This document shows positions 2,242-39,358 of a stretch of DNA of 64,000 nt, piece by piece. Numbering within the stretch: position 1 is the first letter of the stretch; each line of letters starts with the position of its first letter. The translations under genes were made by a program, and so were the position numbers. Location: positions 41,334-105,333 of the forward strand of contig CAYTPX010000001.1 of NCBI GenBank assembly GCA_964439955.1, given 5' to 3'. This stretch comes from an uncultured Bacteroidaceae bacterium (lineage in GTDB: Bacteria; Bacteroidota; Bacteroidia; Bacteroidales; Bacteroidaceae). The notes below the pieces were generated by a model. The model saw only the letters and a program-made list of their open reading frames with translations, did not search any database and was not told the origin of the DNA.

Positions 2242-3345
2242 CTACACGTTGAAACGGAAGTGCATGATGTCGCCGTCCTGAACGACATAGTCCTTCCCCT
2301 CGATGGCCAACTTCCCGGCCTCACGCACGGCGGCTTCCGAACCGTAGCGGATGAAGTCGTCGTATTTGATGACCTCCGCGCGGATGAAGCCCTTCTCGAA
2401 GTCGGAATGGATGATGCCCGCGCACTGCGGGGCCTTGCTGCCCTTGCGGTACGTCCAAGCCTTCACTTCCATCTCTCCGGCCGTGAAATACGTCTCAAGT
2501 TGCAGCAGTCGGAAGGCCGACTTGATGAGCCGGTTGACGCCCGACTCCTGCAAGCCGACGGACTCGAGGAACATTTTCCGGTCTTCATACGTGTCCAGCT
2601 CGGCTATGTCTTCCTCCGTCTTGGCAGCCACCACAAGCACCTCGGCCTCTTCACCGGCGACCGCCGCGCGCACCGCCTCGACATATTGGTTCCCGTCCAC
2701 GGCCGAAGCCTCGTCCACGTTGCATACGTACAAAACAGGCTTGTTGGTCAGCAGGAAAAGGCCGTGCGCTATTTGCTGTTGCTCCTTGCTTTCCCACCGC
2801 ACCGTCCGCGCGGGGCGGCCTTGGGACAGCGCTTCGCGGTAGGCCTCCAGCACCTCGCACGCGGCGCGCGCCTCCTTGTCGCCGCCCGTCTCGGCCTGTT
2901 TCCTGACGCGCTGGAGGCGGCCCTCCACGGTCTCAAGGTCTTTCAGCTGGAGCTCCGTGTCGATGATTTCCTTGTCCCGCACCGGATCGACACGGCCATC
3001 GACATGTACGACATTGCCATCGTCGAAACAACGGAGCACATGGATGATCGCGTCCGTTTCCCTTATGTTTGCCAAGAACTTGTTGCCGAGGCCTTCGCCT
3101 TGGCTCGCCCCTTTCACCAAGCCCGCTATGTCTACTATCTCAACCGTGGCCGGTACGACGCGGCCGGGATGGACTATCGCGGCCAAGCGCCCGAGCCTTT
3201 CGTCGGGGACGTTGATGACGCCCACGTTAGGCTCAATGGTACAGAAAGGAAAGTTGGCCGATTGCGCCTTTGCGCTCGACAAACAGTTGAAAAGGGTGGA
3301 CTTCCCCACGTTGGGCAGCCCGACTATTCCGCATTGGAGGCTCAT
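2242..3345 (-). CDS. ychF: ribosome-binding ATPase YchF (OLA1 family)
   Basis: ORF 2242..3645 trimmed to ATG at 3345: MSLQCGIVGLPNVGKSTLFN (P-loop), 367 aa, C-terminal ...DGDIMHFRFNV typical of YchF. Confidence 0.93.
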   Translation of the reverse strand: MSLQCGIVGLPNVGKSTLFNCLSSAKAQSANFPFCTIEPNVGVINVPDERLGRLAAIVHPGRVVPATVEIVDIAGLVKGASQGEGLGNKFLANIRETDAIIHVLRCFDDGNVVHVDGRVDPVRDKEIIDTELQLKDLETVEGRLQRVRKQAETGGDKEARAACEVLEAYREALSQGRPARTVRWESKEQQQIAHGLFLLTNKPVLYVCNVDEASAVDGNQYVEAVRAAVAGEEAEVLVVAAKTEEDIAELDTYEDRKMFLESVGLQESGVNRLIKSAFRLLQLETYFTAGEMEVKAWTYRKGSKAPQCAGIIHSDFEKGFIRAEVIKYDDFIRYGSEAAVREAGKLAIEGKDYVVQDGDIMHFRFNV

Positions 3346-3414: not shown

Positions 3415-3510
3415 GGCGAAACCCCTTGCCGCTTTTCGCGAAAAGCGGCAAGGCTTTTGCAGGGAAACGCACGCGCTTCCCGCGGAAAGGGGCGGCACTT
3501 CCCCCAAGGA
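3415..3510. repeat. palindromic intergenic repeat cluster
   Basis: ccttgccgcttttcgcgaaaagcggcaaggcttttgcagggaaacgcacgcgcttcccgcggaaaggggcggcacttcccc. Confidence 0.7.
3424..3453. terminator. perfect 30-nt palindrome, probable bidirectional terminator between the nuclease gene and the ychF promoter
   Basis: CCTTGCCGCTTTTCG/CGAAAAGCGGCAAGG, 15-bp perfect arms, T-rich on both flanks; built from two inverted repeat modules. Confidence 0.45.
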
Positions 3511-3541: not shown

Positions 3542-3566
3542 CCGGGGAAGGCGGCGGAGGGGCTCA
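3542..3566. repeat. left copy of short direct repeat flanking the MTase-nuclease cassette
   Basis: ccggggaaggcggcggaggggctca; compare 6223-6239 gcgggggaaggggctca; in both copies the final tca is the stop codon (TGA) of a minus-strand gene. Confidence 0.4.
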
Positions 3567-4688
3567 ACGGGCGGACTTGCGGCGGTTGCACGTGCGGCAG
3601 AGCATCTGGCAGTTCTCTTCCACGGTGCGCCCGCCCTTGGCCCACGGCACAATGTGGTCGGCCTCCATCTGCCCGTAATCGAATTCCCCGTGGCAGAGCG
3701 GGCAGACGTGCCCCTGTTTCTCCCAGGCGGCGAGCTTGATGTCTTCGGGAAAGGCGCGCAAGTCAAGGTGGCGCTCGTCGCCCGTCAGGACATAGGGTAT
3801 GATGCCTTTCGGGCGTTGCACCTCGCCGTCGAGCAGGAGTTGCGCGATGCGTCGGCCGAGGGCGGCAGTGTCGAGCGCCTGCGTGCCGTAGGTGTCGTAG
3901 TAAAGGGCCCAGTCGTGGCCTTTCATGATGCGGCGGAACTTCTTCGGGTCGAAGTTGGTCAGGGCCCAATTCAGCACGTTTTGGAAGTACGTCCACAGGT
4001 TGTTTGCGTTGGGGTCGTGCTGGTGGCCGGCCATGTAGCCCACGGCGGTCTGCGGCTTGCCTTGGCGCGTCTCGTGCCCGGCCATCCACTCCAGCGCCTT
4101 CCGCAGGAAGTCTTGGCGGATGGGCGTACCGTCCACCAAGTCCTTGCCCAAGCGGTAGGCGCCGCAATTGGACTTGGAAAAGTGGCGTTTCGCGTCCGAA
4201 ACGAACGGGCCGGCATAGACCGCGTTGCGTATTTCCTGCTCGTTGAGCGGCTTGCCCGCTATGTTGATGGTCTTGAACCACTCCAGCTTTTCCGAGGGTT
4301 CGCCCGCGCAGACGTAGACTATAAGGGGATAGTCGAGGATGCGCCGCTGCACATCGGAGGGCTGGTTGAAGAAGTTCTTGAAATCGACCGAGAACTTTCC
4401 GGCCACATACTGGCACAGCGAGAGCGTGCGCTGCTGCCCGTCCATCACCTCGTAGGGGCATTCCGCGTCGTCGCTGCGGCGCACCCAGTACATCACGTTG
4501 AGCGGATAGCCTTGGAGCACAGCGCGGATGACGGCCTGCTGCTCCGCTTCGCTGTAGATGAACTCGCGTTGGTAGGGAGGGCGGATGTCCAATTGGCCGT
4601 GATAGCCGCGCACGCCCTGCTCTTCGTTGTTGGTATAGCCGTCGACTACTTCGCCTACGGTTATTTTCTTTTGCTCAATGGTCATCAT
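3564..4688 (-). CDS. DUF262 (ParB/Srx-like, GmrSD N-terminal type) domain protein fused to a C-terminal HNH endonuclease
   Basis: 374-aa ORF; IRPPYQREF and VMDGQQRTLSL (DUF262 signatures); C-terminus CPLCHGEFDYGQMEADHIVPWAKGGRTVEENCQMLCRTCNRRKS (CxxC..DH..N..CxxC HNH). Confidence 0.85.
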   Translation of the reverse strand: MMTIEQKKITVGEVVDGYTNNEEQGVRGYHGQLDIRPPYQREFIYSEAEQQAVIRAVLQGYPLNVMYWVRRSDDAECPYEVMDGQQRTLSLCQYVAGKFSVDFKNFFNQPSDVQRRILDYPLIVYVCAGEPSEKLEWFKTINIAGKPLNEQEIRNAVYAGPFVSDAKRHFSKSNCGAYRLGKDLVDGTPIRQDFLRKALEWMAGHETRQGKPQTAVGYMAGHQHDPNANNLWTYFQNVLNWALTNFDPKKFRRIMKGHDWALYYDTYGTQALDTAALGRRIAQLLLDGEVQRPKGIIPYVLTGDERHLDLRAFPEDIKLAAWEKQGHVCPLCHGEFDYGQMEADHIVPWAKGGRTVEENCQMLCRTCNRRKSAR

Positions 4689-4724
4689 GGGACTGCTGCT
4701 TTTTTGGTTTTTCTTACTTACATC

Positions 4725-5765
4725 TTAGATTCTGCGCTTGATAAATAGACGCTTATACTTACGTTTCCCGTCAACAAGGGGCTGGGCAACACGACTCGTA
4801 GCAAGCCACAATCCATTAGAAAAGCCTTTCCCTTCGCTTTCTGTTGCACCTATTATTTCGAATTGCTCAGGGTTATATTTGTCGAGGAACGTGACGGGTA
4901 TGCCCATTACGCCGTCGTAATCGCACGGGATATCAGCGGTTTTGCTTACTTCTATGGCATCGTAGTTGTCATACTTCGGGTACTCTACGGGTGAATAGTG
5001 GCATACGAGGTCAAGTTCCTCGTAGCGTTTAGGTATTTCTATATTGGTGAACCAAGTAACACCCGATACACGTATCATCCCCTTCCTATGGTCATTTGCC
5101 ACAGCAGTGTCCTCATAAGGGGAAAGAAAATGCGCCGCATTTCCCTTGAAGCCATAGCCTAACCAAAGTTTATTACCTCGTATTAAGGGAAATATCTCCT
5201 TATAAGTCAAGGCATTCTGGTGGCCGATTATGAGAAATTTCTTGCCGTGCTCCATCAGTTGTGCCACGTATTCGCGGAAAAGGGAGAAGGGCGGATTGGT
5301 CACTACGATGTCGGACTGCTTCAAGAGCTCTATGCATTCGTGCGAGCGGAAGTCGCCCGTTTCGAGCTGGGAGCAGACGTTCTTTCCGTTTTGCAGCAGG
5401 ACACGCACATCGGAGAGGTCGACCGCGCCGTCGCCGTTGAGGTCCTTCACTTCGGTAATCTCTACCTTGTAGGCCGGTTTCGCCGGGGCTCCGGCAAATC
5501 CGTCGAAGGGAAGGAGCAGCTCGTTGCCCTGCACGGGCGAGCCATCGTAGCAGGTGCAGATGAGCCGGCGAAGGCCGAGCTGGTTGAAGTGGAGGGCGAA
5601 ATACTTGAAGAAGTTGCTCTCATAGGGGTCGTCGCAGTTGCAAAGCACGGTTTTGCCCCGGAAATGCGGCCAATAGTGCTGCAACTCGCGCTCGATGTCG
5701 GAGAGTTGCGTGTAGAACTCGTCCTTCTTTGCCGCCTTCGCGGCGTTGAGTCGTTTGTTTGCCAT
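4725..5765 (-). CDS. DNA N6-adenine methyltransferase, EcoRI-methylase-like family
   Basis: ORF 4725..5804 starts at TTG; preferred ATG at 5765 (MANKRLNAAKAAKKDEFYTQ); motif IV IVVTNPPFSLF; family assignment from memory of similar Bacteroidales proteins; 36 bp upstream of and co-oriented with the DUF262-HNH gene. Confidence 0.85.
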   Translation of the reverse strand: MANKRLNAAKAAKKDEFYTQLSDIERELQHYWPHFRGKTVLCNCDDPYESNFFKYFALHFNQLGLRRLICTCYDGSPVQGNELLLPFDGFAGAPAKPAYKVEITEVKDLNGDGAVDLSDVRVLLQNGKNVCSQLETGDFRSHECIELLKQSDIVVTNPPFSLFREYVAQLMEHGKKFLIIGHQNALTYKEIFPLIRGNKLWLGYGFKGNAAHFLSPYEDTAVANDHRKGMIRVSGVTWFTNIEIPKRYEELDLVCHYSPVEYPKYDNYDAIEVSKTADIPCDYDGVMGIPVTFLDKYNPEQFEIIGATESEGKGFSNGLWLATSRVAQPLVDGKRKYKRLFIKRRI

Positions 5766-5769
5766 GGGC

Positions 5770-5947
5770 GATTGATAGTCTAAACGCGGCATCGGTGCTA
5801 TCAATCGCCTGCACGCAATAAGAAAAGGGCATGGCCATCTTATTGCGTCCTGCGAGGCAGCCTAGGAATGAAGCCTCTCCACATTTAATAAGCGCCACAC
5901 CCTTATGGGCGTGAGCATAGCTTATTCCAAATGTGGAGAGCATTCCT
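5770..5947 (-). promoter_or_regulatory. structured leader/operator region upstream of the MTase: three consecutive inverted repeats
   Basis: IR1 gattgatag 5770-5778 / ctatcaatc 5798-5806. IR2 gcaataaga 5815-5823 / tcttattgc 5838-5846. IR3 aggaatg+ctctccacattt+aataagc 5864-5893 pairing with gcttatt+aaatgtggagag+cattcct 5920-5947. Confidence 0.4.
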
Positions 5948-6124
5948 GGGCGGAATTCCTTACCTATTATTTTCGGTATCCTTATATCTTTTGCTACAAA
6001 GTTTCCTAGGCTTTTAGCAGAACGCGAAATAATAGCTAATGCTTCGTATGGGTCAATATGTCGTTTGTCTCTCGTTAGTTTACTTCATAGGCAGTGGTTT
6101 CGTGTCCCGCGGCGGGGACGTTTG

Positions 6125-6232
6125 GGGCAAAAGTAGGGAATTTCTGCAAAAAAGTGCCTGCGCTTCCCGGAAAAAGCGCTTGCGCCCCACGGCAAAAGCG
6201 GCAAGGCGGCCGGCAGGGAGGCGCGGGGGAAG
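6125..6232. repeat. palindromic intergenic repeat cluster
   Basis: gcaaaaaagtgcctgcgcttcccggaaaaagcgcttgcgccccacggcaaaagcggcaaggcgg. Confidence 0.65.
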
Positions 6233-6239
6233 GGGCTCA
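6223..6239. repeat. right copy of short direct repeat flanking the cassette
   Basis: gcgggggaaggggctca, ends in the murI stop codon; see 3542-3566. Confidence 0.4.
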
Positions 6240-7058
6240 GAGGCGTATGTGGCGCGCCGAAACAGGCTGGCGGAGGAAGAGGGAAGCCGAGGCGTCGAAC
6301 TTGCCGGCGGCCTCGGTGGTGAGGTAAACGCACTGCCCGCCGCGCGCGCAACGCTGCTCGATTTCGGGATGGCGGCGGAGGTAAGCGTCCAGGCTGGCAG
6401 CCACGTAGCCGCCTTGTGCCAGGACTTCCACCCCGGGAGGGAGGACTTGGCGTATCTTGGGCAGGAGCAGGGGGTAGTGGGTGCAGCCCAGAATGAGCGT
6501 GTCGATGAGGGGGTCGCGGGCAAGGAGCTGGCCGAGGTACTTATGCACGAAGTAGTCGGCGCCAGGCGAGTCGTGTTCGCCGTTCTCCACCAGCGGCACC
6601 CACAGGGGGCAGGCCTGCCCGTTGACCACGATGCCGGGGTAGAGTTTGTGTATTTCGAGCGTATAGCTCTGCGAAAGGATGGTGCCCGCCGTGGCCACAA
6701 CGCCCACGTGGCGGCTGCGGGTGAGCGCCCCGAGGGCTTCGACGGTGGGGCGGATCACGCCCAGCACGCGGCGCGAAGGGTCGATAAGTGGCAGGTCGCG
6801 CTGCTGGATGGTGCGCAAGGCCTTGGCCGAAGCGGTGTTGCAGGCCAAGATAACCAGCGGGCAGCCCATGGAGAAGAGCTGCCCGACGGCTTCTTTGGTG
6901 AACTCATATACGACGTCGAAAGAGCGTGTCCCGTAAGGCGCACGGGCGTTGTCACCCAAGTAGAGGTAGTCATACTGGGGCAAGCGGGCGCGGATGCTCT
7001 CGAGTATCGTAAGGCCGCCATAGCCGGAGTCGAAGACTCCTATCGGCCCAGTGCTCAT
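6237..7058 (-). CDS. murI: glutamate racemase
   Basis: GVFDSGYGGLT, ILACNTASA and LGCTHYPLL motifs; 273 aa. Confidence 0.93.
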   Translation of the reverse strand: MSTGPIGVFDSGYGGLTILESIRARLPQYDYLYLGDNARAPYGTRSFDVVYEFTKEAVGQLFSMGCPLVILACNTASAKALRTIQQRDLPLIDPSRRVLGVIRPTVEALGALTRSRHVGVVATAGTILSQSYTLEIHKLYPGIVVNGQACPLWVPLVENGEHDSPGADYFVHKYLGQLLARDPLIDTLILGCTHYPLLLPKIRQVLPPGVEVLAQGGYVAASLDAYLRRHPEIEQRCARGGQCVYLTTEAAGKFDASASLFLRQPVSARHIRL

Positions 7059-39244: not shown

Positions 39245-39358
39245 GAAGCAGCAAAAAGGAAGTGTTTCCCACGGGCATCTACACAAAAAGCCTTGCCGCT
39301 TTCTCCGGAAAGCGGCAAGGGAAACGGGAAAAAACGGCAAGGCTTTTGCGGGAAAGCC
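39245..39358. repeat. palindromic intergenic repeat cluster
   Basis: ccttgccgctttctccggaaagcggcaagggaaacgggaaaaaacggcaaggcttttgcgggaaagcc. Confidence 0.7.
39291..39320 (-). terminator. hairpin downstream of folA
   Basis: ccttgccgctttc 39291-39303 / gaaagcggcaagg 39308-39320, 13-bp perfect stem, 4-nt loop. Confidence 0.45.

Follow-up and report, generated by a model that had tools for sequence, protein, structure and literature searches.

The locus described here raises the question of what kind of system is encoded by two adjacent genes, one for a DNA methyltransferase (MTase) and one for a nuclease, which are found in a 64,000-nucleotide stretch (below, the window; contig CAYTPX010000001.1, positions 41,334 to 105,333) from an uncultured Bacteroidaceae bacterium. 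A preliminary description of this DNA had reported two co-oriented minus-strand genes 36 bp apart, and the list of open reading frames (ORFs) bears this out: both genes are on the minus strand, and 36 bp separate the MTase stop from the nuclease start. All of the motifs that it quoted (KKDEFYTQ, DIVVTNPPFSLF, DIRPPYQREF, VMDGQQRTLSL and CPLC...DHIVPWAKGG...N...CRTCN) are found in the translations. The description had suggested that the pair may act like a restriction-modification (R-M) system, but also that it cannot be placed in Types I-IV. Here, sequence comparison and structure prediction indicate that the pair is very probably a mobile, horizontally acquired two-gene Type II R-M cassette, which resides in the spacer between murI and ychF.

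Profile matches and linkage of the two genes

The assignment is based first on profile matches that extend over the whole length of both proteins. Residues 2-373 of the nuclease align with positions 1-371 of the 372 positions of the PADLOC model REase_II PDLC03418 (E 2.6e-126). The same model spans each of 20 diverse relatives, the most distant of which has 38% identity, with scores of 283-486 bits, which shows that PDLC03418 represents the family as a whole and that the match is not accidental; a near-identical exemplar behind the model was not found among these 20 relatives. In addition, two shorter HNH-type REase_II models, PDLC03566 and PDLC03478, weakly match the C-terminus of the nuclease. 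The MTase matches the PADLOC model MTase_II PDLC03297 (E 1.6e-117) and the Pfam family EcoRI_methylase, PF13651, with an E-value of 1.1e-142 over profile positions 2-344 of 345 and a score of 475.8 bits, as compared with a gathering cut-off of 26.4. Its catalytic NPPF sequence (motif IV) recurs in at least 80% of the 16 family members compared, and a sequence search of the Protein Data Bank (PDB) with the MTase found nothing. The protein thus shares PF13651 with M.EcoRI, with 343 of the 345 profile positions covered, while the partner nuclease is unrelated to R.EcoRI, an enzyme of the PD-(D/E)XK fold.

What is found in the window is therefore a pair of separate, adjacent M and R genes, both with curated Type II profiles and with intact catalytic motifs. 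Judged by these matches, PADLOC already classes this architecture with Type II R-M. The R-M models of this resource are, as we understand it, derived from REBASE, which the PADLOC papers cite. The view that the pair falls outside Types I-IV does not hold, because both proteins are matched over their full length by PADLOC Type II models, and the match to a catalogued REBASE-type system that the preliminary description had named as grounds for dropping its proposal is essentially in hand by way of these profiles. What stands of the earlier interpretation is its R-M-like part, i.e., a methylation-blocked nuclease with a cognate MTase, which is the best explanation; the part that regarded the pair as unclassifiable does not stand.

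The second line of evidence is the linkage of the two genes in other organisms. In a scan of one genome per species, at least 579 related stretches were confirmed, of which 80 loci were kept. A search of these loci with the window MTase showed that, of the 75 with any upstream DNA, 74 have a member of this MTase family directly upstream of the nuclease in the same orientation; in the sole exception (L070) the nuclease is 5'-truncated, and the four remaining loci start at or within the nuclease gene and have no upstream DNA. Nuclease homologues are thus linked to MTases, which answers the neighbourhood survey proposed earlier; the earlier expectation that an MTase would not accompany nucleases of this kind is not supported. 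In several other hosts the M and R genes overlap by 1-11 bp, and the 50%-identity protein library contains a 688-residue protein (P0386) in which EcoRI_methylase, DUF262 and HNH follow each other in one polypeptide; this protein is either an M-R fusion of the family or a read-through gene call. Linkage, overlaps and carriage on mobile elements (see below) are, as read from these sequences, what marks an M-R module as mobile and functionally coupled.

Domains, relatives and possible mechanism of the nuclease

The Pfam search confirms the earlier reading of the nuclease as a protein with an N-terminal DUF262 domain and a C-terminal zinc HNH domain (Table 1). The C-terminus also matches PF14279 HNH, and no match to DUF1524 (PF07510) is found at E<=0.01. 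The helical region between these two domains is without a Pfam match; it is the likeliest sequence-reading module of the protein and may serve in DNA recognition or dimerisation.

Table 1. Coordinates of the features of the cassette and its surroundings (positions in the window)
Feature	Position	Strand	Evidence
R gene: DUF262(ParB-like)-helical-HNH nuclease, 374 aa, ATG start	3564..4688	-	ORF, PADLOC REase_II PDLC03418, AlphaFold
DUF262/GmrSD_N ParB-like domain, residues 34-158, with QR (40-41) and DGQQR (83-87)	4215..4589	-	PF03235, E 1.6e-16
Central all-helical region, residues ~160-315	3744..4211	-	AlphaFold helices H161-H302, pLDDT ~86-97
Zinc-finger HNH domain, residues 329-374: C329, C332, D344-H345, N359, C364, C367, N368	3567..3704	-	PF01844, E 9.4e-14
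M gene: EcoRI_methylase-family N6-adenine DNA methyltransferase, 346 aa from ATG at 5765	4725..5765	-	ORF, PF13651, PADLOC MTase_II PDLC03297
Catalytic NPPF motif (motif IV), MTase residues 157-160	5286..5297	-	translation VVTNPPFSLF
AT-rich 5' leader and promoter region, travels with the cassette	5766..6100	-	GC 0.35-0.54 vs 0.71 in host spacer
Perfect 12-bp inverted repeat GGCGATTGATAG-N19-CTATCAATCGCC, abuts the MTase ATG	5767..5809	.	pair I19
Copies of the GC-rich intergenic repeat	3419-3478, 6152-6206, 1074, 8224, 10975, 14000, 17652, 37048, 39291-39342		

Conservation was assessed in 66 sequences with 46-86% identity to the window protein, which was used as the reference. In the DUF262 domain the columns Q40-R41 and D83-G84-Q85-Q86-R87 are invariant, and in the HNH domain C329, D344, H345, N359, C364 and N368 are invariant and C332 is retained in at least 90% of the sequences. 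C367 was read from the window sequence (CRTCN) and is not among the conserved columns. Because the key residues are invariant, both the DUF262 and the HNH modules are under selection, and the ParB-type nucleotide motif pointed out in the preliminary description is real and strictly conserved.

In the AlphaFold model built from a diverse alignment (predicted local distance difference test, pLDDT, 86.6, as compared with 39.5 from a shallow alignment), a ParB-like alpha/beta domain forms the N-terminus and a beta-beta-alpha HNH domain the C-terminus, with an all-helical region between them. A Foldseek search of the PDB with this model returned no match at E<=1e-3. The top match was BrxU (7p9k; E 1.1e-3, template-modelling (TM) score 0.21), and the other best matches were the N-domains of CTP-binding ParB and Noc and the Gme HNH nickase (4h9d). 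When the PDB was searched by sequence, only isolated HNH domains, with the HNH domain aligning with Gme HNH 4h9d and a group II intron maturase HNH, and a marginal BrxU match (E 0.2) were identified. The nuclease family is represented by no solved structure.

These structural matches bear on the possibility that the nuclease is a Type IV, modification-dependent enzyme similar to GmrSD or BrxU, which would act against modified phage DNA, with the MTase being an independent or orphan enzyme. With GmrSD, BrxU and SspE the nuclease shares an N-terminal DUF262 domain, matching Pfam GmrSD_N and carrying QR and the invariant DGQQR, as well as a C-terminal His-Me-finger nuclease, and BrxU is the best Foldseek match. 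However, the nuclease ends in a CxxC zinc HNH of PF01844 and not in DUF1524, the protein is shorter (374 residues, as compared with 580 for the BrxU chain) and, unlike in those systems, a cognate MTase is found directly upstream in nearly all loci. A near-obligate, same-strand and often overlapping linkage across phyla, together with the M-R fusion, would be unexpected for independent genes, and a nuclease that required the N6-methyladenine mark of its own partner would kill the host. Furthermore, the best profile is that of a full-length Type II restriction endonuclease, whereas the PADLOC models for Menshen NsnA and PD-T4-2_A, with which the DUF262 region is shared, match N-terminal segments only (residues 3-163, E 7.9e-25, and residues 30-97, E 7.5e-10, respectively); also unlike Menshen, there is no NsnB or NsnC partner, the neighbors being the MTase, ychF and murI. 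Given the MTase partner, the nuclease domain other than DUF1524 and the full-length Type II profile match, the Type IV alternative is disfavored and considered very improbable. The nuclease is presumably methylation-blocked rather than modification-dependent, unlike GmrSD, BrxU and SspE.

Classical Type II endonucleases with HNH/beta-beta-alpha-Me domains include KpnI, Hpy99I, PacI and NlaIII/SphI. With these systems the cassette has in common the adjacent, separate M and R genes, an adenine MTase with NPPF, a zinc HNH and carriage on plasmids and phages; it differs from them in that the nuclease contains a ParB-like DUF262 domain with DGQQR and a helical middle of ~150 residues. As a Type II system, the cassette would function as follows. 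The MTase, as suggested by its family membership, would methylate a short recognition sequence of the host to N6-methyladenine and thereby protect the host. The nuclease gene is probably co-transcribed with the MTase gene, in view of the short gap here and the overlaps in other hosts, and the C-terminal zinc HNH would cut at or near the same sequence when this is unmethylated. Cleavage would destroy incoming phage or plasmid DNA, and a host that lost the cassette would pay a price, as is the case for other Type II systems. By analogy with BrxU, GmrSD and SspE, for which nucleotide binding by DUF262 is stated in an EcoSal review (PMC12707154), the most likely role of the DUF262 domain, in which DGQQR is invariant, is nucleotide binding together with the gating or positioning of the HNH nuclease. 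The invariance of DGQQR raises the possibility that cleavage depends on a nucleoside triphosphate (NTP), which would make the nuclease an atypical Type II enzyme. A further step, which we regard as tentative and rather doubtful, would be to view the family as a distinct restriction subclass, in which a ParB-type (CTP/GTP) switch licenses the HNH domain at unmethylated sites and which would form a bridge between Type II and Type IV; if so, DUF262-HNH would be the methylation-blocked counterpart of the modification-dependent GmrSD and BrxU.

Three points weigh against the Type II assignment. Textbook Type II enzymes need only Mg2+, and a DGQQR motif of the NTP-binding type is not a feature of theirs. 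The nearest solved structure is that of BrxU, a Type IV enzyme, although the match is weak. Finally, neither the literature nor the relatives that were scored revealed the REBASE prototype behind PDLC03418 or its recognition site. A limited search of open-access full text found no paper on a DUF262-HNH Type II enzyme and no biochemistry for the nuclease family. Makarova et al. 2013 (PMC3632139) described frequent fusions of the ParB-like COG1479/DUF262 domain to HNH nucleases and its links to DNA-modification systems, and the general idea that DUF262-HNH proteins are tied to DNA modification is not new. The finding itself matters little, being one more mobile Type II R-M cassette that is useful mainly for annotating the host genome and for transforming the host organism. 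What is of wider interest is that a nuclease family that is abundant and recurrent across phyla combines a ParB-like DUF262, a helical and an HNH part, yet no structure or biochemistry was located for this combination.

Mobility and probable chromosomal insertion

In the 50%-identity library the nuclease family comprises 394 clusters at E<=1e-30 and, with the threshold relaxed to E<=1e-3, 10,279 representatives, and most of the best 150 representatives are full length. It is abundant in gut and rumen Bacteroidales, where each of two clade-seeded searches gave at least 8000 candidates; a profile search with the diverse nuclease alignment returned, among the matches listed, only the Prevotella clade. 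Hosts with 72-84% identity include Prevotellaceae and other Bacteroidales, and those at ~50-54% include Helicobacteraceae, Sulfurimonas, Sulfurovum, Neisseria, Ulvibacter, Saccharicrinis and metagenome-assembled genomes (MAGs) of Hyphomicrobiales and Campbellbacteria. Host groups thus include Campylobacterota, Flavobacteriia and a bacterium of the candidate phyla radiation (CPR).

The M-R pair is found on plasmids of Bacillota, Actinomycetota, Pseudomonadota and Bacteroidota, e.g., on a cfr plasmid of Mammaliicoccus and on the 7.5-kb L. agilis plasmid pLa3_1, on which the pair is accompanied by no genes other than rep and a MerR regulator. It is also found on the Flavobacterium phage laban6-1 and, as a moron between the lysogeny module and the recombinase, in Staphylococcus pettenkoferi prophages and a metagenome contig (L168-L171). 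The lysogeny module of these four consists of a helix-turn-helix (HTH) repressor and an ImmA peptidase, or of an S24-peptidase repressor, and three different recombinases (two tyrosine integrases and one serine recombinase) are found beside the pair.

This distribution may also be explained by assuming that the pair is a selfish addiction (toxin-antidote) module, which stabilises the elements that carry it and has little role against phages. Addiction behavior is a known property of many Type II R-M systems, and the occurrence of the pair as the sole cargo of very small plasmids, on prophages and in unrelated chromosomal sites is in line with such a role. This explanation, however, concerns the selective benefit, and the biochemistry that it implies is the same as that of a Type II system. 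Moreover, the cassette in the window is chromosomal and has no mobile-element genes nearby, and on the Microcella chromosome the pair is located next to a SMODS defence gene. As an account of this cassette, addiction in place of defence is thus regarded as quite unlikely.

In the window, the Type II cassette is surrounded by housekeeping genes, with ychF (start near 3345) on one side and murI (6237-7058) on the other, and two OmpH genes, BamA and UppS beyond murI. According to the ORF list, no integrase, transposase, specificity subunit or helicase adjoins the cassette, and the preliminary description was correct on this point. The cassette looks to have been inserted between murI and ychF. 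In two distant relatives (MurI 67% and YchF 77% identical) these genes are 122-123 bp apart, and none of 80 murI-relative loci contains the cassette. A true sister genome for the comparison proposed earlier was not found in the metagenome collection, where the nearest MurI relatives are only ~70% identical.

The limits of the insertion are indicated by a GC-rich repeat or hairpin of intergenic regions, with the core CCTTGCCGCTTTT and frequently arranged as an inverted pair, which occurs in 12 copies in the window, as compared with 0.21 expected, and which looks like a REP/MITE-like element of the host. It is found on both sides of the cassette, at 3424-3453 and 6194-6206. Because host-type repeats flank both sides, the foreign segment is bounded to roughly 3564-6100. 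The unusually low GC of the leader and of the 3' half of the MTase gene is also in line with an insertion.

Contigs from Logan that represent the same organism (L001, L082-L084; SRR7039258, SRR7039261, SRR7039263) have their murI-side end at ~6016, ~220 bp past murI, and the cassette contig of SRR7039261 starts inside the MTase gene (~5714), leaving ~300 bp of leader unassembled. No cassette-free allele was resolved in these contigs, which break at ~6016 and ~5714. The breaks at the upstream cassette junction could reflect strain variation or a repeat.

The G+C content at third codon positions (GC3) of the nuclease gene is 0.84 throughout, which matches the host (0.75-0.82 in host genes) and suggests a long residence under selection; the locus of the relative L002 also has 60% GC. 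The cassette seems to have been resident for long in a high-GC Bacteroidales lineage. The MTase gene is, by comparison, a mosaic, with a GC3 of 0.82 in codons 1-150 (5' half) and of 0.52-0.54 in codons 150-300 (3' half). Because the value is low in the 3' half and high in the 5' half and in the nuclease gene, this pattern suggests that the 3' part of the MTase gene was swapped by later recombination.

Such a recombination history might also point to a cassette that is decaying in this genome, with an inactive nuclease and an MTase that survives in an orphan or regulatory role. There are precedents for decay in the family: in addition to the truncated nuclease noted above, the match is split in one locus (L067), and in another (L041) a PIN-type pair is found between M and R. 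The latter locus, from a rumen Prevotella MAG, contains at 5247-5994 a 108-residue ORF and a 167-residue PIN-like ORF between the MTase and nuclease genes, which form a putative toxin-antitoxin pair. In the window, however, both ORFs are full length with respect to the profiles, and the nuclease retains all family-invariant columns, because invariance was computed with the window protein as the reference; the host-like GC3 of the nuclease gene is a further argument against decay. With both ORFs full length and all family-invariant residues in place, decay in this genome is very unlikely.

The leader and the recognition site

The open frame of the MTase reaches upstream to a TTG at 5804 (ORF 4725-5804), and the ATG at 5765 yields the protein of 346 residues. 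In Bacteroidales cassettes a conserved, hairpin-rich stretch of ~170 nt precedes the MTase gene (5766-5965 in the window, minus strand; also in L002, L003, L007, L022, L038, L042, L066 and L076). An alignment of eight cassettes from different hosts contains 13 predicted pairs with compensatory changes in this leader, which has no match in Rfam. The core of the palindrome next to the MTase ATG, GATTGATAG...CTATCAATC, is conserved in sequence in the first seven of these loci, while a related inverted repeat is found in L076; both the structured leader and the palindrome are absent from non-Bacteroidales cassettes. The inverted repeat at the ATG is a candidate operator or translational hairpin, and the leader may be a clade-specific regulatory element, perhaps an operator or an attenuator that delays or balances the expression of M and R.

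An analysis of k-mer avoidance in the window, the carrier loci and control Bacteroidales loci picked via MurI (L088-L167) gave no specific site. In carrier DNA the observed/expected (O/E) ratios of GAATTC are 1.11, 0.93 and 0.73, and there is no overall avoidance of GAATTC, CAATTG or AATT (only the window is low in CAATTG, with 3 observed and 6.8 expected), which makes a specificity similar to that of EcoRI (GAATTC) unlikely. GATC is depleted in the window, with 67 sites observed and 175 expected (O/E 0.38), and it is low in every carrier locus as well as on the carrier plasmid and phage, with 0 sites in the cassette itself. This depletion is non-specific, because GGCC is depleted as uniformly as GATC and the MurI-picked controls are nearly as poor in GATC (median O/E 0.38, as compared with 0.26 in the carriers), and it was rejected as specific evidence on the recognition site. 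GATC is poorly represented in related Bacteroidales loci in general, which makes it probable that these lineages have other systems directed at GATC. GTCGAC and CTCGAG are low in all three sets, and the window is also short of CTAG (O/E 0.12) and GTCGAC (0.20).

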